Assembly (NCBI GenBank): GCA_965222575.1
Contig: OZ244958.1
Span: forward strand, 608,001 to 672,000
Source of the DNA: Alphaproteobacteria bacterium
GTDB lineage: Bacteria; Pseudomonadota; Alphaproteobacteria; G965222575
Direction: 5' to 3'
DNA length: 64,000 bases
Positions 8,765-45,457 of the stretch are shown here, piece by piece. Under the pieces are notes generated by a model. The model ran no database searches, had not been told where the DNA came from, and saw only the letters and a program-made list of their open reading frames with translations. Both the position numbers and the translations under genes were made by a program. The stretch's first letter is position 1. Each line of letters starts with the position of its first letter.

Positions 8765-9109
8765 ATGACATCAATACAAGAAAAGATTCAACAACTGGTT
8801 CAAGATCATCAGGTGGTGTTATTTATGAAAGGAACGCCTAAGGTGCCAAGATGCGGCTTTTCTGCACGCGTGGTCAACATTTTAGACTATTTTTCTATCT
8901 CTTTTATAGGAGTGGATGTCTTGGAGAATGACACCATGAAGGAAGCCCTTAAAGTCTTTTCCGATTGGCCGACGATTCCGCAGCTCTATATAAAAGGCAC
9001 TTTTATAGGAGGATGCGATATTGTTGCAGACATGATGGAAAAAGGAGAGTTAGCGTCCTTTTTTTCTCAGCAAGGCATTCCCATTTCGAAGCCGTCTTCT
9101 TCTCTTTAG
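8765..9109 (+). CDS. grxD: Monothiol glutaredoxin Grx4
   Basis: LFMKGTP..PRCGFS, WPTIPQLY and GGCDI; RBS AGGAGG upstream. Confidence 0.95.
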   Translation: MTSIQEKIQQLVQDHQVVLFMKGTPKVPRCGFSARVVNILDYFSISFIGVDVLENDTMKEALKVFSDWPTIPQLYIKGTFIGGCDIVADMMEKGELASFFSQQGIPISKPSSSL

Positions 9110-9193
9110 AGCCTCTATCCTCTAGGGATTGGTTGAGAGAGGTCAGCTGTAGAGTAGCGAAGACTATAGGAGGATTATAGTAGCGTTGTTTTT

Positions 9194-9556
9194 CTAGCGC
9201 CTTTCTTTGATACGTGCGGCTTTGCCTCGTAGTTTACGCATGTAATATAACTTTGCTTGGCGTACTGCCCCTTTGCGTACAATTGCAAGACTGTCAATCA
9301 GAGGCCCATAAAGTGGGAAAACGCGTTCTACTCCTACTCCTGATGAGAGCTTGCGTACGGTAAAGGTAGAGTGTAGGCCTCTGTTACGACGCCCTAGACA
9401 TAATCCTTCAAAGATTTGGATTCTTTCTCGTTTGCCCTCTTTGATTCTCACGCCGACTTTGAGAAGGTCGCCGGGACGAAAATTTTTTGCCTTTTTGTCT
9501 TCTTTCCCTGAAAGGAGGGCTTTTTGTTCTTCTTTGAGTGTTTGGAGTAAGGACAT
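9194..9556 (-). CDS. rplS: 50S ribosomal protein L19
   Basis: [26 protein letters not shown] and AKLYYMR. Confidence 0.97.
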
Positions 9557-9590
9557 ATTTTAGGAATAGAGGTTGGTCACTTAGAAAAGT

Positions 9591-10313
9591 TTATTGTGAC
9601 TTGGGTGTGGCTGTTTTTGCAAGATAAATTTCCCATAAATCTGGGCGGGTTTTTTTGGTGAGCCGTTGTGCCTCTTGAGTCTTCCACTGAGCGATTTTTT
9701 TGTGGTCTCCTTTGGTCAGTACCTCAGGGACAGATTGAGTTTCCCAAACAAGAGGGCGTGTGTAAAGAGGATGTTGTAAGAGGCCGGACGGGGAAAAACT
9801 TTGTCCTTTTAAGGACTGTTTGTTGCCTAGAATGCCCGGAATATAGCGCAAAATGCCATCTGTTAAGGTAAGAGCCGCTATGTCTCCATTGGAGAGAATG
9901 TAATCACCAAGTGATATCTGTGTGATGCGATAATTGTGAAAGAGTCGTTCATCAATGCCTTCAAAGCGTGGGCAAATGAAATACGCACCCCCTTTGCGGG
10001 CTAGAGACTGAATAACAGATTGTTTCAGTACAGGGGCTGTAGCACTAAAGCAAATAATAGGCCGCTTGCCATCAGTAATAGAATCAAGACATTGTCCCAA
10101 AACATCAGCTCTCATGACCATGCCCCCCCCTCCTCCATAAGGGACATCATCCACCGTGTCACTGAAGTCTCTTAAGAAAGTTGTTTGAAAAGTCCATAAG
10201 CCTGCCTGTAAGGCTCTCCCTGTAATGCCAAAGCCTAAGGGACCGGGATACAAGTTAGGAAATAGTGTAATGTAGTGTGCCTCAAATCCTGTGCTTAGAG
10301 AAGCTTTAGGCAC
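9591..10313 (-). CDS. trmD: tRNA m1G37 methyltransferase TrmD (probable own GTG start at 10313; appears fused to S16 in the assembled frame)
   Basis: ITLFP, VDDVPYGGGGGMVM, RFEGIDER, ISLGDYIL, YTRP and VPEVL..GDH. Confidence 0.93.
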   Translation of the reverse strand: MPKASLSTGFEAHYITLFPNLYPGPLGFGITGRALQAGLWTFQTTFLRDFSDTVDDVPYGGGGGMVMRADVLGQCLDSITDGKRPIICFSATAPVLKQSVIQSLARKGGAYFICPRFEGIDERLFHNYRITQISLGDYILSNGDIAALTLTDGILRYIPGILGNKQSLKGQSFSPSGLLQHPLYTRPLVWETQSVPEVLTKGDHKKIAQWKTQEAQRLTKKTRPDLWEIYLAKTATPKSQ

Positions 10314-10332
10314 TGGTTGGGGAAGATTTTCC

Positions 10333-11435
10333 TTACTTGCCCCTCTCTTTGGAGACAGGAGGTGTGGTCTCATGAGTAGTGGGGGTTTTTGCTTTTTTAG
10401 AAGAAGAAGCAGAGGCTTCTGCTTTAGAAGTTGAAGGTGTCCTGTCCTCTGTTTTTGCTTTAGGAGTTGGGGGTGTTGTGTCCTTTGCTTTAGGAGTTGG
10501 GGGTGTTGTGTCCTTTGCTTTAGGAGTTGGGGGTGTTGTGTCCTTTGCTTTAAGAGTTGGGGGTGTTGTGTCCTTTGCTTTAGGAGTTGGGGGTGTTGTG
10601 TCCTTTGCTTTAGGAGTTGGGGGTGTTGTGTCCTTTGCTTTAGGAGTTGGGGGTGTTGTGTCCTTTGCTTTAGGAGTTGGGGGTGTTGTGTCCTTTGCTT
10701 TGGAGTTGGGGGTGTTGTGTCCTTTGCTTTAAGAGTTGGGGGTGTTGTGTCCTTTGCTTTAAGAGTTGGGGGTGTTGTGTCCTTTGCTTTAAGAGTTGGG
10801 GGTGTTGTGTCCTTTGCTTTAGGAGTTGGGGGTGTTGTGTCCTTTGCTTTAGGAGTTGGGGGTGTTGTGTCCTTTGCTTTAGGAGTTGGGGGTGTTGTGT
10901 CCTTTGCTTTAGGAGTTGGGGGTGTTGTGTCCTTTGCTTTAGGAGTTGGGGGTGTTGTGTCCTTTGCTTTAGGAGTTGGGGGTGTTGTGTCCTTTGCTTT
11001 AGGAGTTGGGGGTGTTGTGTCCTTTGCTTTAGGAGTTGGGGGCGTGGGTTTCTTTGTTTTAGAAGGTGTGATTTCCTTCTTTATTTTCTCTTGAGTTTTG
11101 CGTTTTTCTTCCTTTTCCTTAAGACGTTCTTGAGCTTTTGCTTTTGGCTTGGCTTTTTGAGGATTGTGGTGTGTTTCAAAAGAGGCAATCAGTCCGGCGC
11201 TGTACAATAATCGGGCGACGCGGTGGGTAGGTTTTGCTCCTTCTCCGAGCCAATACATTGTGGCTTCTTTATCGAGGTGCACATACTGTTCGGAGTCTTT
11301 GTTCACCAGAGGGTTATGAGTTCCTACTTTGGCTACGAAGCGTCCGTCTCTAGGGGCTTGTCGTTCAGCGACGACAATTCTGTAAAAAGGCTTATTTTTA
11401 GCCCCTCTTCTTGTTAATCGTATTCTGAGTGCCAT
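10333..11435 (-). CDS. rpsP: 30S ribosomal protein S16 with long PTPKAKDTTP-repeat tail; a 1-nt deletion near 10702 shifts the frame into trmD
   Basis: N-terminus MALRIRLTRRGAKNKPFYRIVVA..RDGRF. Restoring the missing base gives ...ETTPPVSKERGK* with the stop at 10333-10335. Confidence 0.9.
10451..11040. repeat. Coding tandem repeat, 30-bp unit TCCTTTGCTTTAGGAGTTGGGGGTGTTGTG, about 20 copies
   Basis: Directly visible. Four units carry TAAG instead of TAGG, and one unit (10691-10719) is 29 bp. Confidence 0.98.
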
Positions 11436-11518
11436 AGGTATTGAAGATATCTTTGAAGGGTTTTCCGAGGATTTCCCTGTTGGATTCTCTGGTTTGCCCC
11501 TGCCCTCAAAGAGAGCTT

Positions 11519-11558
11519 GTCACAACCACAGGTCACAACCGCAGGTCACAACCGCAGG
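11519..11558. repeat. 3 x 13-bp direct repeat GTCACAACCRCAG upstream of rpsP
   Basis: Directly visible. Confidence 0.85.
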
Positions 11559-11559
11559 C

Positions 11560-11596
11560 AAAAAAGAGGGAGAGAGAGACGGGTTCCCTCTTTTTC
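11560..11596 (-). terminator. Intrinsic terminator downstream of hup
   Basis: AAAAAGAGGG...CCCTCTTTTT inverted repeat flanked by A/T runs. Confidence 0.65.
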
Positions 11597-11621
11597 CTAG
11601 ATTGAGAACTGAGCAAGAGCG

Positions 11622-11903
11622 TTAATTAACAGAATCTTTGAGTTTTTTAGCGGGGCGAAACTTTGGTTGCTTAGAAGCAGGAATCTTCAAAGGTTCTCCT
11701 GTTTTAGGGTTGTGACCAGTGCGTGCGCTACGCTTCACAACTTCAAAAAATCCAAACCCTGCAATACGTACGCTGTTTCCTTTGCCTAATTGAACAGCGA
11801 TGGATTCTAACACGGCATCTACTGCTTGCTTAGCATGCGCCACTGATACACCAAGTTCACTGGCTACTGCATTGACCAGATTGGCTTTATTAATAGCACT
11901 CAT
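11622..11903 (-). CDS. hup: Nucleoid protein HU
   Basis: NKANLV, VRIAGFGFF, RSARTGHNPKTGE and PKFRPAKKLKD. Confidence 0.94.
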   Translation of the reverse strand: MSAINKANLVNAVASELGVSVAHAKQAVDAVLESIAVQLGKGNSVRIAGFGFFEVVKRSARTGHNPKTGEPLKIPASKQPKFRPAKKLKDSVN

Positions 11904-12172
11904 AGTTATCTCCTTAAATTTAGTTTACTGTTGACTTGATTCTTCTATAGAAGATTCTTAATCTGAGTACACCCGCCTGATGCGGTAGTGTGTAACACTT
12001 TACGCATATAACAGGGGTACACAAAATCACTTGTATCATAGGAAACCTTGAAAGACAAGGATTTCTTAAGAAACTTTTCATTTTCTCTTTGTTAGCAATC
12101 AGGAGAGAAAATCTTTGTATCTTCTAGATTTTGTTATGCGTGGGAACACTCGGGACAAAGACAGTAGCTCAG

Positions 12173-12246
12173 TCGGGAAGAGAGGATTTGAACCTCCGGC
12201 CCCCACGTCCCGAACGTGGTACTCTACCCGACTGAGCTACTTCCCG
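12173..12246 (-). tRNA. tRNA-Pro(CGG), CCA not encoded
   Basis: Reverse complement CGGGAAGTAGCTCAG...CCACG-TTCGGGA-CGTGG...GGTTCAAATCC..CTTCCCGA folds as a cloverleaf. Confidence 0.95.
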
Positions 12247-12276
12247 TGTTTCTTAACACTAAGACTTTTTCTCCTT

Positions 12277-13004
12277 TTATACAAGCTCAAGGGCGCTTAA
12301 GAGCATCTGCCGTAAGGCTAGCAAGTCTGTCCTTTCAGAAGGGAGATGTTTTTGAAGAAAGTATCCAGTTAAGTTCCCCCCATTTCTATAGTCTTCCTCA
12401 CTGATAGCTGCCTCCTCTTCACCCCTTAAAAAAGCAGGAATGGGAAGAAGTTTACGAAGGTATTGCTGTCCCACTGCCTCGCATACTATAGCGCCACTGC
12501 GGGGGGATATATGCGTTAAGTTTTCTCTTGTCCCCGTTACAACGCATTTTGATGTATCCAAGCCATAACCTGCTTCTTTCAATAGATGCATTTCCCACTT
12601 GAGATAGAATTTGAGCCAATAAGGTACCTCTTTGTTTTTCTTCAGAATCTCTAACAACAGGACCAGTTGCGTGAAAATGTTGCCGCAAGGGGCTTGTTCA
12701 GGAAAAAAACTCAGCAAAAGACGACAAGCACAACACAGGGCTAAAGATTTCTTGGTGCAATTGAGCAGGGCAATGCCCGGTACCCTCACCTGTTCAAAAG
12801 TCCAATTCCCCAAGTGAGAAGCAAGACGCCCCCGCCAAGTCACATCTGCTATACTACCTTCCATGCAATAGGCTACCGGTACCCGTTTCGATACGCGTAA
12901 TAATCCGCTTGTAATCCCTCTCTTCTTCGTCAAAATCCTTACAATACGGCTGTTTCCCCGTATTTACTTGACGATAACACTACCCCTTCATCTTGCCAAT
13001 CCAT
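12277..13004 (-). CDS. recO: DNA repair protein RecO with a 1-nt frameshift near 12955 (possible sequencing error)
   Basis: The start MDWQDEGVVLSSSKYGE at 13004 is out of frame with the body (WRGRL..HLG, WEMHLL..GYGLD..CVVTG, SPRSG). Adding one A to GGGGAAAC restores YGENSRIVRILT. Confidence 0.88.
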
Positions 13005-13915: not shown

Positions 13916-16042
13916 TTATGGCGTAGCAGGTGGCGGCGGTGGGGGAGTCGTAATAGGCGGAGGAGGAGGAGGAGGCGTAATAGGCAGCAGTGGGGGAGGA
14001 GGAGTCGTCGTCTGTAAGATAGTGGAGCGCTTGAGTGCTTCTGTGAGCATTTGCGCTGCATCAGAATCAAAAATAATATACGCCGTTACAAATAGCAGTA
14101 ACTCTGTTTTTTCCCCTATATTAGAAGTGCTTGAGAAAATTTTATTCAAAAGAGGCAGGTCTCCTAGCAGGGGAATTTTCTTCTTAGCCTTTCGCACGAC
14201 ATACCGCATAAGACCTCCTAGCACAACAGTCTGACCATTGGTAGAAGCCAGTTTTGTTTCCAAAGACCTCTTGTTAAAAGTCGGTTGACCCGTATCCGCC
14301 CCTACTGTGCCATCTCTTGAGTCCTCCACTTTAATATCCATCATAATGGTATCAGTACCTCGAACTTGAGGAGAGATACTTAATTTTAAGCCTATCTCTT
14401 TGGTTTCAAATTCTTGCTTGGGAATGGAGGTGCCGGATTCTTGGACGGAAGTGCTGAGTACGGACTTGATAATCCGTTTTTCATCTATACTGGAAATGGT
14501 AGCTGTTTGACCATTGCTTACGAAGATACGAGGCCGTGAGAGGATTTGCACATTGGTTTCGCTTGCGAGCATTTTAAGAGTCGCGAAGGTTTTATTAGCA
14601 GGGTCTGATTCTGCGTTGTTGAGAATGTTAAACTGGAATCCATCTGATATACCGCCGGAAGGGAAGGCATTGAATCGGAAATCTGCAGACTGATTGCCCT
14701 CATCTTTCCCTCTTAAGAACCACTCTACTCCGAATTGTAGGGCTTCTGATAGTTGTACCTCTACGATGGTGATATCTGCGAATACTGTAGGTTCGCGTTT
14801 ATCTAGGGCCTGAATAGCGCCCCGGATTTTGTAGTATTGACTAGGCGTAGAGAGGATAAAGAGGCTATTATTTAGTTCATCGACCTGTAAGAAGGGGGGA
14901 GAGGGGTCGTTGTCAAAGAATTTATTGATTAACGGGATGAGCAACGTGGAGAGATAAGAGACGCTGCCTTCTTGCATTTTGTACAGGAAGAGTTCAGGGA
15001 CTTCTTCTCCCGGTTGGTCTACTTCATTGAGGAAGTCTATTAAAGCCCCTTTGTAACCAGCTGTAGGGAGCACAATGATTAAGCGTTTATCATTGGGAAT
15101 AATAGCGCTTTCGAAAGGCTTAGCGGCGCCTTTTAAGTTTAGTTTGGTTGGCAAGGTGTCTAGGAGTGCGGACAGCACTTGAGCGGAACGATAGCGCGGG
15201 GTGTACAGCAGCACGGAACGCCCTTGAAAAAGGGAGACATCAATGGAGCGCAGGAAGCTCTCTGCGCGATTAATGGTACTTGTCGTCCCAAAAATTAACA
15301 GCGTGTTGGTGCTGTCAAGGGGATAAGCCATGTCCGGTTGGGTTAAGAGATTTTGTAACAACGGCAACGCCTCTTTGACTTGAAGATACTGAAGGCGAAA
15401 CATGCCAATGACTAAAGAAATCGGGTCTTGAGAAAAGGCGGAGGAATCCGGTAGGGAGGACTCCTTGTGCTCAGGAGATGGTTGAAAAAATTCTGCTCTT
15501 GACCCGATGACATACATCCCATTGTGATACCCAATGTAAATCTGGTGAATCTCTAAGAAGGAGGCAAGAACATAAAAGGCATCCGCCGCTCTATACCACC
15601 CCTTTAGAACCCAGTTGACCTTCTTATCAGGAAAAGTGTTGGTGAGAGTATAGGAGTAAGAAGAGAGATAGGTATCAAAGAAAGCCGTGATAATCTCTTT
15701 GATAGAAGCCTCTTCCACGCGAACATCGACCTCTAGGAGAGGGGCATTGCGCGCAGTATCAGAAGAGAGAGGATTGTTACGGATTTGTTGAGAGGGAGAA
15801 GAGAAAACATTCTTGAGGTTCTCTTCTACGGTGTTGTCTTTTCTGAAGTCTTTCTTCAGTAAGGATTTTGTTGTGGGGTTTTTTTGTTGAGAGGAAAGAA
15901 AATCTGCGGGAAGCTTTAACTTGCCTTGGGCTTCCATTTCCTCGAGACTAGGCAGCTGGTTGCGGTTTTCGGAAGGCCTTTTTAAGCTACAGCCGGAAGC
16001 GGCTAAAGAGGCGATGATGAGGAAAAGACAGGCGTTTTTCAT
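13916..16042 (-). CDS. gspD: Type II secretion secretin GspD, lipoprotein type, with C-terminal polyproline tail
   Basis: Lipobox LAASGC, N-domain repeats (TNTLLIFGT, NNSLFILST), and secretin motifs IVEV..FGVEW, ILSRP, GQTVVLGGL, KIPLLGDLP and TELLLFVT. Confidence 0.9.
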   Translation of the reverse strand: MKNACLFLIIASLAASGCSLKRPSENRNQLPSLEEMEAQGKLKLPADFLSSQQKNPTTKSLLKKDFRKDNTVEENLKNVFSSPSQQIRNNPLSSDTARNAPLLEVDVRVEEASIKEIITAFFDTYLSSYSYTLTNTFPDKKVNWVLKGWYRAADAFYVLASFLEIHQIYIGYHNGMYVIGSRAEFFQPSPEHKESSLPDSSAFSQDPISLVIGMFRLQYLQVKEALPLLQNLLTQPDMAYPLDSTNTLLIFGTTSTINRAESFLRSIDVSLFQGRSVLLYTPRYRSAQVLSALLDTLPTKLNLKGAAKPFESAIIPNDKRLIIVLPTAGYKGALIDFLNEVDQPGEEVPELFLYKMQEGSVSYLSTLLIPLINKFFDNDPSPPFLQVDELNNSLFILSTPSQYYKIRGAIQALDKREPTVFADITIVEVQLSEALQFGVEWFLRGKDEGNQSADFRFNAFPSGGISDGFQFNILNNAESDPANKTFATLKMLASETNVQILSRPRIFVSNGQTATISSIDEKRIIKSVLSTSVQESGTSIPKQEFETKEIGLKLSISPQVRGTDTIMMDIKVEDSRDGTVGADTGQPTFNKRSLETKLASTNGQTVVLGGLMRYVVRKAKKKIPLLGDLPLLNKIFSSTSNIGEKTELLLFVTAYIIFDSDAAQMLTEALKRSTILQTTTPPPPLLPITPPPPPPPITTPPPPPPATP

Positions 16043-16046
16043 GAAC

Positions 16047-16520
16047 TTAGGGGGTTGGCGCAAGAGGCGGCGGCGGATCGGGAGCGGGTTTTTGTAACTT
16101 GCGGAATGAGGGATTGAGCGGAATCTTGTGATGGAGTCCGTTTTTCTTGAGGGCAAGGGGGGGTTTTGAGAGCGTTAAGGTCTCTCCTTTTTTGAGGGTG
16201 CGCACTGTTGGTTTCGAAGCGTTAGGGAAGAGAATATAGTGTTGGCCAATGCGTATAAACCCTTTGATTTTCTCTGCTTCTTGTGCTGGCTCTTTTGACC
16301 AAGAGCGTCCCTTGGGGTCAAACACATTGAACGTCATGACATAAGGCAAGGGGATGGAAGAAGAAGAAGGAGCCCCTTTGAGGACTTCTTGTGACGGAGC
16401 AGCGAGGTGTATGGAAGGCGGCGTATCAGAGACTTGAAAAACAGGCAAAAAGAAAAACGCTGCCAATTGTAAAATGACTAGGAGACACAACCCATACAAA
16501 AATGTGTTGATATGATGCAT
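16047..16520 (-). CDS. Membrane-anchored T2SS-associated protein (GspC/GspN-like position)
   Basis: N-terminal TM segment, NVFDP.GR motif and Pro-rich end; directly upstream of gspD. Confidence 0.4.
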   Translation of the reverse strand: MHHINTFLYGLCLLVILQLAAFFFLPVFQVSDTPPSIHLAAPSQEVLKGAPSSSSIPLPYVMTFNVFDPKGRSWSKEPAQEAEKIKGFIRIGQHYILFPNASKPTVRTLKKGETLTLSKPPLALKKNGLHHKIPLNPSFRKLQKPAPDPPPPLAPTP

Positions 16521-17129: not shown

Positions 17130-17205
<76 letters not shown>

Positions 17206-17467: not shown

Positions 17468-17764
17468 TTAGAGGTTGGAAGACGAAATTTTATGGTGAAA
17501 GTTCCAGTATTTTTCTGCTACTGCGATTCCGTTTTCTAAGGCTTTGACAATGGCTTCCTGATTTTGGAAGCTTTCTGGAGGTAGTCCTTTGGCAATGGAG
17601 GCTTTGGCTTCCGTAAGCGAGGTTGTGAGTGTGTCTTTTATGTGTTGTAGGGCAGTGCCGTCTGGGTCTTTAGCTAGGGTTTCTTCAAGGACTAGCATGT
17701 GTAAGGGTTCTTTTTTATCGGTTGCGGCTTGGGGGGAAATTTTTGGAGAAGACGAAGAGAGCAT
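17468..17764 (-). CDS. EscE/YscE/SsaE-like type III secretion needle co-chaperone
   Basis: Small two-helix protein with pattern LEETLAKDPDG..L..AK..GLPPESFQ..IVKALE..V..YW. Confidence 0.6.
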   Translation of the reverse strand: MLSSSSPKISPQAATDKKEPLHMLVLEETLAKDPDGTALQHIKDTLTTSLTEAKASIAKGLPPESFQNQEAIVKALENGIAVAEKYWNFHHKISSSNL

Positions 17765-24183: not shown

Positions 24184-24201
24184 GTAAAGTGACCTCGCAA
24201 A

Positions 24202-24492
24202 TGCCGGCCTTCTGTTGCAAGGTGGCCGGCGACCCCACTTAACCGCGTGCTTGCGGTTAAGATTTCACGTTTTCAAGCGAGGCTTGTGCTAAGCAGCAAG
24301 ACGCGCTTGTGCCATTGTATTATTGGCTCGTTATGATTGACCCTAAGCGGTGGAATCGTACCGAACGAAGCTATCACTCTTTAGACGCGCATCGAAGCTA
24401 TTTCACCCCCCTCGGTGGAGGTGCCGGGTACTGCCCCCGGGTCTGCTCGCTTATGACAGTGCAGGTTTATCGTTATAGTGATGAACCATCAC
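24202..24492 (-). ncRNA. ssrA: Two-piece (circularly permuted) tmRNA; tag (A)ANNTMAQARLAA
   Basis: On the minus strand, the acceptor piece GACCCGGGGGCAGTACCCGGCACCTCCA precedes the coding piece GGGGGTGAAATAGCTTCGA. The tag ORF at 24327-24289 ends LAA*. A terminal GCCGGCC..GGCCGGC hairpin follows. Ends are approximate. Confidence 0.93.
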
Positions 24493-24499
24493 AGCACGC

Positions 24500-24529
24500 A
24501 GTATAGCACAAGGACTTTACCATTTTCAA
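24500..24529 (-). promoter_or_regulatory. Sigma70 promoter of ssrA
   Basis: Minus strand TTGAAA-N18-TATACT. Confidence 0.7.
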
Positions 24530-24666
24530 ACCCAATAAACTAAACAGGTGAGACTTCAAAAAGAGACCTGCTCTTGCGAGAATCCTTTAAGTAAAGATTA
24601 TTCTCCTTGTTTTTTTCAGAAAAACCCCCTATCTTGAAATAAATATCAGTAATTTTTGTTAGTTCC

Positions 24667-33079: not shown

Positions 33080-34264
33080 TTAGAAGAGGGCAACAATTTG
33101 TTTGGTTGTGTTATCGTAGATGGCTTTTAGGGTTGCGCTGTTTTTCTTGAGGGTGAGGCTTATATAGCGGTGGTTGTAGGGGTCTCCTTTGAGGTGTAGG
33201 AATTTTTTAATTGTGTTGGCGTGTAAGGTGCCGACGGAAAAGGCGAGGTGGTCGTAAGTCCTGTCTATTTTGAGGGCGTTCAGAGCGGTACGACAGACAT
33301 TGGGGGGGAGATTTGTTAGTGCTGATAGGAGAGAGGGAGAGAGGGTATTGGGTTGTAATTTGTTGAGATTATAGGGGCTGAAGTGGGTTTGTAGGAAGGC
33401 CACTAGGTCTATGGAGCTATTTTTGAGAAAGAGAGCCTGTCCTATTGAGGAGAAAGCGGTGTTGTGGCTTTGGTGGTGGAGTTGTTGTTGGTGGAGGTAG
33501 GTTCCTTCTGTGTTGAGTCCTCGGGGGAAGATATCTGGGTCTTTCCAATCGGCGAGTGTTGCGGCGAGGGCGGGGGCTTTTTGAGGAGAGAGACCGAGAT
33601 GGAGGAAGAGGCGTTTGAGTGTTGCTTCCTCTAGGAGATTGGGGTTGAGTTTTCCTTTACCTGCGTATTGTACGGTGACGGAGATGGTAGATTTGTCGTT
33701 TAAGGAGAGTTGATAGGGGATTGGGGAGGGGTTATATTGTTTGACGAACAAGGAAGAAGCGAAGAGGTTCAGAGTGAGTTTTTCTGTTTTCAGCAAGGAG
33801 GGGTCTATTTGGAAGGGTTGGTCTGTGGGGAGCAAGTCGTCAAGGTCTATAATATTTTTGAGTAGTTCTTTGAGGCTGTTGAAGAGACGGTTTTTTTCCG
33901 TTTGATATTTTTCGAGCTTGATGACCATTTCTTTGTGATAGGAGGTGACCCAATCTTTATGGACTACTAGGGCGGCGTTTTGTGCTATAGCAATCAGGTA
34001 GGCTAGTCCGTCGTAGAGTTCTCTTTTATGGAGGGGGTAGCTTCCTAGCTCTTGGACGACTTTTTTGTTATCGAGAGAGTGCAGCAGTTGTGCTAGGAAG
34101 ACGGAAGCCCCTATGGTGATCCAAAGGACGAAGATAAGGATAAAACCCCGACCTCTAGGAAGAGGTCTTCTTGTTTGCCTGCGCGCACCATTTGGAGGCG
34201 TAGTACTACAGGTCGCGGTTGGGTGTGTTGAGCGGTTGGGTGTGATGTCCACTGAGATGTCCAT
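33080..34264 (-). CDS. gspK: T2SS minor pseudopilin GspK-like (start uncertain)
   Basis: RG|FILIFVLW prepilin-like segment without E5, GKLNPN, LADWKDPD and N..FSS. Confidence 0.72.
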   Translation of the reverse strand: MDISVDITPNRSTHPTATCSTTPPNGARRQTRRPLPRGRGFILIFVLWITIGASVFLAQLLHSLDNKKVVQELGSYPLHKRELYDGLAYLIAIAQNAALVVHKDWVTSYHKEMVIKLEKYQTEKNRLFNSLKELLKNIIDLDDLLPTDQPFQIDPSLLKTEKLTLNLFASSLFVKQYNPSPIPYQLSLNDKSTISVTVQYAGKGKLNPNLLEEATLKRLFLHLGLSPQKAPALAATLADWKDPDIFPRGLNTEGTYLHQQQLHHQSHNTAFSSIGQALFLKNSSIDLVAFLQTHFSPYNLNKLQPNTLSPSLLSALTNLPPNVCRTALNALKIDRTYDHLAFSVGTLHANTIKKFLHLKGDPYNHRYISLTLKKNSATLKAIYDNTTKQIVALF

Positions 34265-37671: not shown

Positions 37672-39645
37672 TTGGTAGAGGACACTAATAATATTGTGAT
37701 ACCCCATGAAGCTGATGAAGAGGCGCGCAAGGAATTTGTGTCTCTTTTAGGGGAGGGGAGCGTAGAGAGTCTCAAGGGGTCGGTTGTGCAGGGGGTAGTG
37801 GTGATGGTGGAAGGGAATCAAGTATCGGTGGATATTGGTCTTAAGATGGAAGGATTGATTCCTTTAGAGGAGTTTACCTCTGCGGGGGAGGAGGTATCGC
37901 GAGGAACCCTTGTGGAAGTTTTTGTGGAGCATATGGAAACGCGTCGTGCGTTGTGCGTATTGAGTCGCCAACGTGTTCGTAATAGGAAAGTTTGGGCGGA
38001 GATGGAGGAGCTTTTTGAGGCTGGGAAAGCGGTTGAGGGGAGTGTAGAGTCTTGGGTTAAGGGGGGATTTACTGTTAAGGTGAGAGGGATTTTGGGATTT
38101 CTTCCTGGGAGTCAGTCTGATCTTTTGCCTGGGGCGGATTCGGAGAGTCTTGTGGGGACGACTCATTTGTTTAGGATTTTGAAGATGGATAGGGCTTGGG
38201 GGAATATTATTGTTTCTAGGCGTGCTGTTTCTGATGAGGGGATGGAAGAGGAGAAAGCGACTTTTCTATCGGAGCTGAAAGAAGGACAAGTCTTGCAAGG
38301 CGTGGTGAAAAATATAACGAATTACGGGGTATTTGTAGACTTAGGGCGCCTGGACGGACTGGTACATATTACGGATATGTCTTATAAGCGGTTATCGCAC
38401 CCTTCAGAGCTTGTGGAAGTGGGGCAGAGTGTAGATGTACAAGTGCTTTATATTCAGTCGGATAAGAAGCGCATTGGGTTAGGGATAAAGCAGCTCAAGG
38501 AAGACCCTTGGGATTGTATAGAGGAGAAGTATAAAGTAGGAGAGAAGTATACAGGGCGCGTGACCAACATTATAGATTATGGGGCTTTTGTGGAGTTAGA
38601 GCCCGGTATTGAGGGGTTAATTTATGTTACGGAAATGAGCTGGGGGCGGCGGGCTGAGCCTTCTAAAATTGTCTCAACATCGGAAGAGGTAGAGGTAGTG
38701 CTTTTAGGCATTGACAAAGAGAAGCGGCGTATTAGCATGAGTTTGCGCCAAGCTGTTAACAATCCTTGGATGAAGTTTCAGGAGGAAAATCCTGTGGGGA
38801 CAAAAATTAGGGGGCAAGTGCAGTCTATTAGTGATTTTGGTTTGTTTATTGCTTTGGAGGGGGAAGAGGATATGGTGGGCATGGTGCATATGTCGGATTT
38901 GAGTTGGGATAAGGACCCGGAGCAGGCGTTGAATGACTATAGGAAGTCGCAGGAGATCGAAGCTTGCATTTTGGAGGTAGATTTGGAAAGGATGCGGATT
39001 AATCTTGGGGTGAAGCAGCTGACGGAAGACCCCTTTCAGAAGGCTTTAGACCTTGAGTTGCACAAGCGTGTGACGGGGGTTGTGGCAAGTGTCAACGATG
39101 CCGGCATTACCCTGACTTTGTCTAATGGGATGAGAGGATTTGTCCGCAGAGGGGATATTTCTTCCTACAGAGATAACCAGAGGACGAATCGATTTGCTGT
39201 GGGGGATAAAGTTGATGCGAAGATTACAAGCATTAATGAGAAAACCAGAAGGATTTTTCTCTCTATTAAGGCGGTGGAAATAGAAGATGAGAAAGAAGCG
39301 ATGAAAACTTATGGGTCTAAAGCGTCTGGTGCCTTGCTAGGGTCGATTCTAGGGGAAGCTTTGGGAGGAGAAGGGAAAAAAGAAGAGGAGGAGGAGGACT
39401 CTTCTGAGAAGCCTGCTGTGGATGATGCGCAGAAAAAGAAAGAGGGGACACCCTCTTCAGAGAAGCGAGCTGTGGATGATGCGCAGAAAAAGAAGGAGGG
39501 GACACCCTCTTCTGAGAAGCGAGCTGTGGATGATGCACAGAAAAAGAAGGAGGGGACACCCTCTTCTGAGAAGCCTGCTATAGATGATGAGAAAAAGAAG
39601 AAGAAAGGTACAGCTAAAGCTACAGAAGAAAAAGGGACGGGCTAG
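37672..39645 (+). CDS. rpsA: 30S ribosomal protein S1 with repeat-extended C-terminus
   Basis: Six S1 domains (FLPGSQ, KNITNYGVFVDLG, DYGAFVEL, DFGLFI). Confidence 0.96.
   Translation: MVEDTNNIVIPHEADEEARKEFVSLLGEGSVESLKGSVVQGVVVMVEGNQVSVDIGLKMEGLIPLEEFTSAGEEVSRGTLVEVFVEHMETRRALCVLSRQRVRNRKVWAEMEELFEAGKAVEGSVESWVKGGFTVKVRGILGFLPGSQSDLLPGADSESLVGTTHLFRILKMDRAWGNIIVSRRAVSDEGMEEEKATFLSELKEGQVLQGVVKNITNYGVFVDLGRLDGLVHITDMSYKRLSHPSELVEVGQSVDVQVLYIQSDKKRIGLGIKQLKEDPWDCIEEKYKVGEKYTGRVTNIIDYGAFVELEPGIEGLIYVTEMSWGRRAEPSKIVSTSEEVEVVLLGIDKEKRRISMSLRQAVNNPWMKFQEENPVGTKIRGQVQSISDFGLFIALEGEEDMVGMVHMSDLSWDKDPEQALNDYRKSQEIEACILEVDLERMRINLGVKQLTEDPFQKALDLELHKRVTGVVASVNDAGITLTLSNGMRGFVRRGDISSYRDNQRTNRFAVGDKVDAKITSINEKTRRIFLSIKAVEIEDEKEAMKTYGSKASGALLGSILGEALGGEGKKEEEEEDSSEKPAVDDAQKKKEGTPSSEKRAVDDAQKKKEGTPSSEKRAVDDAQKKKEGTPSSEKPAIDDEKKKKKGTAKATEEKGTG
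39400..39612. repeat. Coding tandem repeat, 54 bp x about 4 (SSEK[PR]AVDDAQKKKEGTP)
   Basis: Units start at 39400, 39454, 39508 and 39562. Confidence 0.95.
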
Positions 39646-44427: not shown

Positions 44428-45457
44428 TTTGCCTTCTACGGCACCTCCCTTTGCCTTCTTTTTCTTAATTCTTGCCTTCTCTTAATGCGGCACCCCCCCC
44501 CTTTGCCTTCTCTCTCTTAATGCGGACTCCCCCCTTGCCTTCTCTCTCTTAATGCCCTTCCCCTCTTTGCCTTCCCTCTCTTAATGCGACTCTTCCCCCT
44601 TTGCCTTCTCTCTCTTAATGCGGCACCCCGCCTTCCCCCCCCCCCCCCTTTGCCTTCTCTCTCTTAATGCGCACTCCCCTTTGCCTTCCCTCTCTTAATG
44701 CACTCCCCTTTGTCTTCCCTCTCTTAATGCGGCACTCCCCCTTTGCCTTCCCTCTCTTAATGCGGCACCTCCCCTTTGCCTTCCCTCTCTTAATGCGGCA
44801 TCCTCCCCTTTGCCTTCCCTCTCTTAATGCGACCCCCCTTTGTCTTCCCTCTCTTAATGCGACTCCTTCCTCTTTGCCTTCCCTCTCTTAATGCGGCACC
44901 CCTCCTCCCTTTGCCTTCCCTCTCTTAATGCGACTCCCCCCTTTGCCTTCTCTCTCTTAATGCGGCACCCCTCCTCTTTGCCCCCCTCTTAATGCGCCTT
45001 CTCTCTCTTAATGCGGCACTCCTCCCCTTTGCCTTCCCCCTTTGACTCCCCTTCTTCTCTCTTAATGCGGCACCCCCCTTTGCCTTCTCTCTCTTAATGC
45101 CTCCTCCTCTTTGCCTTCCCCTTAATGCCCCCCCCTTTGCCTTCCCTCTCTTAATGCGACACCCCCCTTTGCCTTCCCTCTCTTAATGCGGCATCCCCCC
45201 TTTGCCTTCTCTCTCTTAATGCGGCATCCTCCTCTTTGCCTTCCCTCTCTTAATGCGACTCCCCCCTTTGCCTTCTCTCTTAATGCGGCACCCCCCTTTG
45301 CCTTCCCTCCGCACCCCCCTTTGCCTTTCTCTCTTAATGCGGCCCCCCCTTTGCCTTCTCTTAATGCCCCCCATGGAAGGACAGGAAGGAGCTTATTGAA
45401 GGATTAGGGAAGTGTCTTTAGAATTTATTAGTAATCAGCCTTCCCTCTCTTAATGCG
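44428..45457. repeat. Non-coding degenerate tandem array: core CTTTGCCTTCYCTCTCTTAATGC plus variable C-rich linker, about 28 units
   Basis: About 28 CTTAATGC occurrences counted by eye, period about 29-35 nt; one detached copy at about 45438-45457. Confidence 0.95.

Follow-up and report, generated by a model that had tools for sequence, protein, structure and literature searches.

A near-perfect array of 30-bp repeats follows the ribosomal protein S16 core in a small, repeat-rich alphaproteobacterial genome

Introduction

According to the accessible part of PMC6821194, few bacterial proteins have as many low-complexity regions as ribosomal protein S16 (bS16), and 157 of its 187 such regions exceed 70% Ala+Glu. 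S16 tails are usually rich in Ala, Glu and Pro, and they are acidic. Here we analysed the rpsP gene, which encodes S16, in a 64,000-nucleotide stretch of an alphaproteobacterial genome (hereafter the window, to which all coordinates refer). The tail encoded there resembles the usual ones in its place, after the S16 core and an NPxKAKPKAKAQERL linker, as well as in its short tandem units, its lack of predicted structure and a length that varies between lineages. By contrast, it is a Pro/Thr/Lys tail with one Asp per unit and is mildly basic, its DNA units are almost perfect copies of one another and, if unbroken, it would bring S16 to 367 aa, more than the 317 aa of the longest S16 among the matches listed in our survey.

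C-terminal additions to bS16, observed in ribosome structures, are also described for Cutibacterium acnes and mycobacteria in the accessible part of PMC10085706. The C. acnes extension comprises 65 aa, contacts uS4 and has a far end without density (PMC10085706, same part). Both that addition and the tail analysed here are C-terminal and, as far as the analogy holds, they share a solvent-side location on the 30S body and a flexible distal part. However, the C. acnes extension is non-repetitive and makes a proximal contact with uS4 and h17, while the tail analysed here is repetitive and has no known contact.

Bacterial nucleoid proteins with histone H1-like Lys/Ala/Pro repeat tails include AlgP, Hc1 and mycobacterial HupB. 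The S16 tail likewise consists of short tandem units containing Lys and Pro and is disordered, but it has no [ST]P[KR][KR] motif, contains only 20% Lys, partly offset by Asp, and is carried by a ribosomal protein; its membership in the H1-like tails is not supported by these features. A likeness also exists to Pro/Thr-rich linkers and mucin-like repeats, with which the tail shares a content of 60% Pro+Thr and, here, a 10-residue period. Such linkers and repeats are extracellular, glycosylated spacers, whereas S16 is cytoplasmic.

Results

The S16 core was found in a single genome copy, with one tblastn match in the genome and a PF00886 match of 78 bits (cut-off 27) covering profile positions 1-62 of 62. 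The core is followed by the linker NPQKAKPKAKAQERL, which is also present in other alphaproteobacterial S16 proteins, and then by the repeats, trmD and rplS (Table 1). TrmD has a full-length domain (PF01746, 129 bits, profile positions 2-195 of 195). Its likely GTG start lies 13 residues before the conserved ITLFP of TrmD; in 19 relatives, the nearest trmD start lies 1-25 residues before ITLFP, mostly 5-11.

Table 1. Features of the rpsP-trmD region, in window coordinates (strand given relative to the window; full units are numbered on the coding strand).
Feature	Position	Strand	Remarks
HU gene	11903-11622	-	Upstream of rpsP (start 11435)
13-bp x 3.1 direct repeat	11519..11558	.	In the 186-bp spacer upstream of rpsP
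S16 core, residues 1-93	11157..11435	-	Pfam PF00886 at residues 9-70; single genome copy
Lys/Glu-rich linker (KAKPKAKAQERLKEKEEKRK...)	11070..11156	-	Common to other alphaproteobacterial S16; helix in a low-confidence fold
Leading degenerate unit TPSKTKKPTP	11040..11069	-	21 of 30 bases as in the unit
Full 30-bp units (n=19)	10471..11039	-	Coding PTPKAKDTTP; unit-by-unit layout on the coding strand
Unit 12, 29 bp	10681..10709	-	One T missing between + strand bases 10701 and 10702
Degenerate P/T/K/S-rich stretch behind the array, with stop TAA (10335-10333)	10333..10470	-	In the S16 frame only when the deletion is disregarded
ORF as assembled, 614 aa	9591..11435	-	S16 core, linker, two-frame repeats and TrmD
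trmD, 240 aa, single copy	9591..10313	-	Likely start GTG 10313, AAGGAA 13 nt upstream; alternative ATG 10373
rplS (L19)	9194..9556	-	Last gene of the conserved rpsP-(rimM)-trmD-rplS cluster

Tandem Repeats Finder reported a 30-bp array of 589 bp (10454-11042; 19.7 copies, 98% matches, score 1143). A sequence-only reading of this DNA had described near-identical 30-bp units after the S16 core, and the 19 full units agree with that description. Fourteen of the 19 were identical to CCAACTCCTAAAGCAAAGGACACAACACCC (PTPKAKDTTP). Four units (9-11 and 17) had a common C>T variant that replaces Pro by Leu (PTLKAKDTTP), and the remaining one (unit 12) was without one base. The identity of 14 units, together with a variant shared by three adjacent ones, is consistent with the recent expansion that the same reading had proposed from near-identity. 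In a whole-genome search at the DNA level, the unit gave 18 matches with up to 5 mismatches, all inside the array. The exact unit was absent from the metagenome and genome contig collections, in which records of this genome itself are possibly excluded.

The S16 frame was open into the array, with no stop 5' of the first unit; a stop there had been named as the observation that would count against a translated tail. Tail composition was 30% Pro, 30% Thr and 20% Lys, with no hydrophobic residues. Each 10-aa unit has two Lys and one Asp (net charge +1, approximately +19 over 19 units). Moreover, with one Ala and no Glu per 10 residues, PTPKAKDTTP lies outside the Ala+Glu-dominated S16 tails. No [ST]P[KR][KR] motif was present in either of the native-frame segments (244 aa and 123 aa) and the net charge is only +1 per unit, so the proposed resemblance to histone H1 is not supported. 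Residues 122-244 had no secondary structure in a single-sequence AlphaFold model, the whole of which was poor (mean pLDDT 52).

The base missing from unit 12 changes CCTAAAG to CCAAAG. As assembled, the S16 frame therefore comprises 11 PTPKAKDTTP-type units, the start of a 12th and then eight copies of QRTQHPQLLK. The QRTQHPQLLK frame is the trmD frame and is open straight into TrmD, with no stop over 614 codons. Pfam domains in this 614-aa ORF were PF00886 (residues 9-70) and PF01746 (TrmD, residues 406-598). The single-frame ORF from 11435 to 10333 assumed in the sequence-only reading is thus absent from the assembled sequence, in which the frame shifts at unit 12 and continues into trmD; the TAA at 10335-10333 is in frame with units 13-19 only. 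Without the deletion, S16 would comprise 367 aa and end in ...VSKERGK at this TAA, 19 nt before the ribosome binding site (RBS) and GTG start of trmD, in a canonical operon junction (TAA, AAGGAA, GTG). Consequently, the earlier description of a tail of approximately 200 aa that triples S16 stands if the unit-12 deletion is an error and fails for the sequence as assembled.

The deletion site is outside any homopolymer, and an identical local context was called cleanly in the 18 other units, which argues against a systematic error. The seven full units behind the deletion are identical or nearly so, at the DNA level, to those ahead of it. Together with the intact out-of-frame stop, RBS and start, this indicates that any real deletion would be very young. 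The assembly consists of one contig of 1.216 Mb (97.6% complete, 485 ORFs of at least 300 aa). In a scan of 60 of the 64 window ORFs (the other four were scanned separately), none of those with Pfam hits was split across adjacent ORFs, and a genome-wide screen for frameshifts by overlapping open frames gave 396 pairs, mostly normal operon neighbours. Two 15-bp arrays, one of them with a 2-base deletion, were considered as comparators and rejected; both are located upstream of small ORFs with signal peptides and are probably non-coding, so they are uninformative on errors in coding arrays.

Four public sequencing runs from two studies, with no RNA run among them, were available, and the run contigs were compared with nine array units and the trmD flank. 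In two runs, the flank contigs break inside the array (ends at 10483 and 10449). The array was also covered by 44 and 55 further contigs in these two runs (the 14 shown have 46-67 bases), and 19 and 23 contigs respectively were less than 99% like the window, with no indel rows. Since the contigs are built from short words and break in the array, and canonical contigs fit the other units perfectly, the missing indel rows speak neither for nor against the deletion or the copy number. A run of the other study (X3) gave only two near-identical trmD fragments, and nothing matched in run X4. On balance, we lean towards the unit-12 deletion being a consensus error or a non-fixed variant.

We searched the genome for rimM, a search that the sequence-only reading had proposed, by three approaches. 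PF01782 gave no match over the cut-off (one stray match of 13.7 bits elsewhere), TIGR02273 gave nothing at E<=10, and tblastn with the RimM proteins of 14 relatives gave a best E of 0.02, in low-complexity DNA. Therefore, rimM was not found in this 1.2-Mb genome, either at its usual spot between rpsP and trmD, where its absence had already been remarked, or elsewhere. In the class relatives, RimM was over the cut-off in 36 of 40, mostly right beside rpsP. The four without it were G012 (with a sub-threshold match), G013, G026 and G031; G013 is 99% complete, G026 91% and G031 only 63%. There was no RimM match in G013, yet its S16 has only 118 aa (locus L007). No RimM-like remnant was present in the rpsP-trmD interval with PF01782, TIGR02273 or tblastn. 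A connection of rimM loss with the tail is not supported. The genes rbfA, mutS and recA were present, so loss of these genes is no explanation for the arrays. One unpublished genome (G040) is included in the tallies of the 40 relatives, of RimM and of the long-frame survey below, and is one of the 14 RimM queries (L003); a second one (G239) is counted in the long-frame survey only, and no statement in this work depends on G040 or G239 alone.

S16 tails were analysed in several collections. Of 29 loci of relatives, 23 were readable by pattern; their S16 proteins measured 114-233 aa and carried AEEAP-type repeats, and Lys-rich, AKKA-type ends were observed in a few alphaproteobacterial S16 proteins (L023, L036). 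The long-frame survey comprised the eight longest open frames among the matches listed (150 of 392, from a 400-genome sample). Seven of these loci had an S16 of 139-317 aa, and in the eighth the S16 was normal and its open frame was shared with ffh; 317 aa is the longest among the 150 matches listed, and longer S16 proteins are possible among the other 242. In the clustered collection, the best 120 of 840 matches did not exceed 217 aa, and AEEAP, EETPT and similar repeat tails occurred among the 11 proteins viewed from them. A search of 5.8 billion clustered proteins gave, among 229 candidates, no S16-core protein of 337-1075 aa at E<=1e-5.

Among representative proteins, the best 150 of 8796 matches included S16 proteins of 283 aa and 258 aa, and no Pro/Thr/Lys tail was seen in them (10 were viewed). 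The only non-S16 protein in the best 150 was P0163, a lectin/mucin-like protein of animal type with KDTTEPTIVQ repeats (53% identity over 110 residues). This similarity is compositional and is no evidence of common origin. TrmD-based metagenome loci (n=80) had at most 47% identity. They contained 14 S16 proteins of 81-152 aa, and none of the 12 longest had a Pro/Thr/Lys tail. As all 40 genome relatives share only the class with this genome and the TrmD loci do not exceed 47% identity, there are no close relatives by which the array or the deletion could be dated. The literature searches yielded no published Pro/Thr/Lys or long perfect-repeat S16 tail. S16 repeat tails are thus the rule rather than the exception in Alphaproteobacteria. 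The earlier remark that S16 is often tailed in this class, but seldom with a long perfect array, agrees with the size ranges obtained (114-233 aa and 139-317 aa, none of 337-1075 aa). Judged by its sequence, the tail described here is a known class of feature that is unusual in composition, perfection and length.

Tandem arrays were frequent across the genome (269 non-overlapping arrays, 62.6 kb, 5.1% of the genome). Their period was divisible by 3 in 201 of the 269, and 187 of these 201 were open in at least one frame. Arrays of 99 bp of the ankyrin type were numerous and some arrays extended over several kb. In the same window, 28 kb away from rpsP, the C-terminal end of ribosomal protein S1 consists of an 18-aa unit repeated 3.8 times. 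One further ORF has ...PPTPKAKPPTP... at its end, and P/T-rich or P/T/K repeats occur in others.

Discussion

We consider it somewhat the more probable reading that the array arose when a disordered S16 tail expanded recently, that this expansion is tolerated and that the real protein has approximately 367 aa. The gene belongs to an alphaproteobacterium with a 1.2-Mb, repeat-rich, symbiont-like genome, whose many ankyrin-type arrays would fit an intracellular life. Its lineage would have lost rimM, so that rpsP now abuts trmD. An older low-complexity S16 tail, situated beyond the Lys-rich linker, may already have been Pro/Thr/Lys-rich, because degenerate units are present on both flanks of the array. 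A single 30-bp unit would then have been amplified very recently to 19 copies, likely by replication slippage or unequal recombination; since units 9-11 share one variant, a block duplication may have contributed. By analogy with the bS16 of C. acnes, the product would form a long, unstructured extension that leaves the 30S body on its solvent side and has a mobile far end. From its context, this extension may be tolerated rather than needed, as one case of arrays growing at permissive protein ends, for which the whole genome shows a tendency. Several points stand against this reading. The deletion is present in a finished single-contig assembly whose base quality looks good. The composition (30% Pro, 30% Thr and 20% Lys vs. 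the usual Ala/Glu tails) leaves room for a lineage-specific role, and so does the length of 367 aa, which exceeds that of any S16 found.

An alternative, possible but rather unlikely in our judgement, is that the deletion is real and fixed and that the cell makes a 614-aa S16-TrmD fusion in which TrmD, a tRNA m1G37 methyltransferase, is flexibly tethered to the 30S subunit. This protein would consist of the S16 core, 11 proper units, eight QRTQHPQLLK units, a short spacer and full-length TrmD, the junction stretch ...PVPKASLSTGFEAHY... being part of one protein. Free TrmD could still arise from the internal RBS and GTG 10313. The fusion would be sterically possible, as the S16 C-terminus is probably solvent-facing, judging from the bS16 described in the accessible part of PMC10085706. 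The assembled sequence is open over 614 codons with both Pfam domains complete, and neither rpsP nor trmD has a second copy, so the cell has nothing but the 614-aa ORF. Furthermore, assembly quality is good around the locus and the deletion is not in a homopolymer. However, the search for related S16-core proteins of 337-1075 aa was negative (229 candidates from 5.8 billion clustered proteins). The only chimera seen in the best 150 of the 8796 representative matches (P0230, S16 with a RimM-like part) degenerates into nonsense, like a sequencing error. The seven full units after the deletion are still near-identical DNA, which would make the event very young, and the canonical junction of stop, RBS and GTG, although out of frame, is still intact. 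TrmD is a dimer and, in E. coli, is made at far lower levels than S16. A stoichiometric S16-TrmD protein would therefore probably be harmful.

Selection for a function of the tail, of the kind proposed in the sequence-only reading, is improbable. In that case, the Pro/Thr/Lys tail would act as a mildly basic bristle, with rRNA, mRNA or DNA as its ligand, with the spacing or tethering of ribosomes as its effect, or as compensation for the lost 30S assembly factor RimM. Its net positive charge (approximately +19 over 19 units) and its unusual composition among S16 tails are consistent with such a function, as are the coincidence with a loss of rimM that few members of the class share (36 of 40 relatives keep it) and the Lys-rich AKKA-type ends of some alphaproteobacterial S16 proteins (L023, L036). 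The C. acnes extension contacts uS4 near the mRNA entry side (accessible part of PMC10085706), which points in the same direction. By contrast, SPKK-type motifs are absent from the tail and its charge density is low. The DNA units are perfect even at synonymous sites, which indicates recent amplification and not long-term selection, and similar P/T-rich arrays are found on unrelated proteins in a genome of which arrays occupy 5%. RimM exerts its effect on the 30S head via S19, while S16 binds the body. These separate sites leave a replacement of RimM by the tail with no mechanistic basis, and the S16 of G013, the genome with no RimM match, has only 118 aa. From the sequence, the view that the tail binds nucleic acid, tethers ribosomes, drives condensation or replaces RimM thus finds no support here.

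It is improbable that assembly artefacts account for the number of copies, or for the whole pattern of variants, and that the true array is much shorter or longer than 19 units. In two public runs, none of the short-read-type contigs extends through the array, all of them breaking within it, and the extra contigs (44 and 55, with 19 and 23 less than 99% alike) show that the reads contain more variants than the assembly. On the other hand, the genome was assembled into a single contig despite 5% of arrays and ankyrin arrays of several kb, so the reads were probably much longer than the 589-bp array, and the variants form an ordered internal pattern.

Programmed -1 frameshifting requires a slippery heptamer (X XXY YYZ) and a stimulator at the proper distance. 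We give little credence to a real deletion in a recoded rpsP, from which one gene would yield both the fusion and an ordinary long-tailed S16 via a -1 slip at CCA-AAG: a slip of tRNA-Lys from AAG onto AAA would indeed read GCA-AAG-GAC and so restore the canonical TPKAKD and the normal stop, but the site (T CCA AAG) lacks the classical heptamer, with only an A_AAG tetramer slippery, and the closest Shine-Dalgarno-like AAGGA is 18 nt upstream. If recoding did occur, most ribosomes would carry an S16 tethered to TrmD by approximately 250 flexible residues.

If the array is as assembled, this would be the longest S16 among those compared, with an unusual Pro/Thr/Lys tail, and a recent, tolerated expansion would illustrate how much newly grown repeat DNA a core ribosomal protein can carry where the genome is small and prone to repeats. 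The locus is also a natural test of whether S16 tails matter. In the assembled sequence, gene callers will find a 614-aa S16-TrmD "fusion", a result to be treated with caution; if true, a TrmD tethered to the ribosome would be new. The gene rimM has been argued to belong to the minimal ribosome-assembly set (PMC9035817, accessible part), and its loss from a genome that keeps rbfA is a data point for that debate.

As a minor observation upstream of rpsP, the HU gene is followed by a terminator-like hairpin (11591-11571), and the 13-bp direct repeat lies downstream of this hairpin.

Repeat arrays in the window and in the source genome

Ribosomal protein S1 is, besides S16, the second ribosomal protein in the window with a young repeat tail, as a 54-bp unit, coding for 18 aa that resemble SSEKPAVDDAQKKKEGTP, is repeated 3.8 times at its end. 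Repeats were also present outside the ribosomal protein genes. The spacer upstream of rpsP harbours 3.1 copies of a 13-bp direct repeat (GTCACAACCGCAG), located directly after a terminator-like hairpin that itself lies 3' of the HU gene; no sigma-70-like promoter was found within window positions 9000-12300. A large 32-bp array (approximately 27 copies, 72% matches), apparently intergenic, contained nested periodicities of 51, 53, 99 and 109 bp, and its region held only two short ORFs, both without a Pfam match. These arrays are listed below together with the other features of the window.

Repeat arrays and other features in the window
Feature	Position	Strand	Remark
13-bp direct repeat	11519-11558
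tRNA-Pro(CGG)	12172-12246	-
Secretin	13919-16156	-	Pro/Thr-rich C-terminal end (TTTPPPPLLPITPPPPPPPITTPPPPPPATP)
tRNA-Thr(UGU)	17130-17205	-
Small ORF near secretin	17471-17764	-	match to type III needle E component
Alphaproteobacterial two-piece tmRNA	24200-24532	-	174 bits
ORF	33083-34264	-	weak match to T2SS protein K
S1 gene	37672-39642	+	terminal array at 39399-39600
32-bp array	44478-45361

Elsewhere in the single contig of the source genome (G000:C1), Pro/Thr/Lys repeats were detected in two further ORFs (340360-341760 and 1037725-1038849), one of which has ...PPTPKAKPPTP... at its end, while the other carries approximately nine copies of a RRNAGVTPPPTEGKPAAPPL-like unit. Two near-perfect 15-bp arrays resemble each other in their flanks: the first (150870-151103) has 15.6 copies, and the second (273172-273507) has 22.5 copies and lacks two bases in its second unit. 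Downstream of each array is a small ORF whose start resembles a signal peptide. Arrays with a 99-, 198- or 297-bp unit were numerous (e.g. 91723-94190, 870526-876878, 942235-947888 and 1139080-1142451); judging by their appearance, we take their consensus units to resemble ankyrin repeats, and such ankyrin-like arrays agree with an intracellular lifestyle. In addition, six successive open frames of approximately 890-1216 codons, all on the same strand, were found at 39990-60462. An exact 42-base overlap recurred between adjacent frames at five of the six junctions, and therefore suggests that the run consists of tandem paralogues.

Sequences resembling S16, its tail or trmD

The S16 query also matched P0163, a 781-aa animal-type protein of the representative library with lectin-like and mucin-like parts and KDTTEPTIVQ repeats. 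It was 53% identical to the S16 tail over 110 residues, a likeness that we interpret as compositional convergence. Joined S16 frames were observed twice: in another sampled genome (G121, locus L032, G121:C2:283800-287000), a single open frame spans ffh and rpsP, uninterrupted by any stop between the two genes, and in the library protein P0230, S16 is followed by a RimM-like part and then by nonsensical sequence. Each appears to be an artefact, from either read-through or sequencing, in a high-GC genome.

Two low-depth contigs of X3, a public sequencing run from a study other than that of the runs covering the rpsP array, were at least 99% identical to parts of trmD (window positions 9900-10014 and 10157-10238). 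One of them extends upstream of 10157 by 141 letters that are dissimilar to the window.
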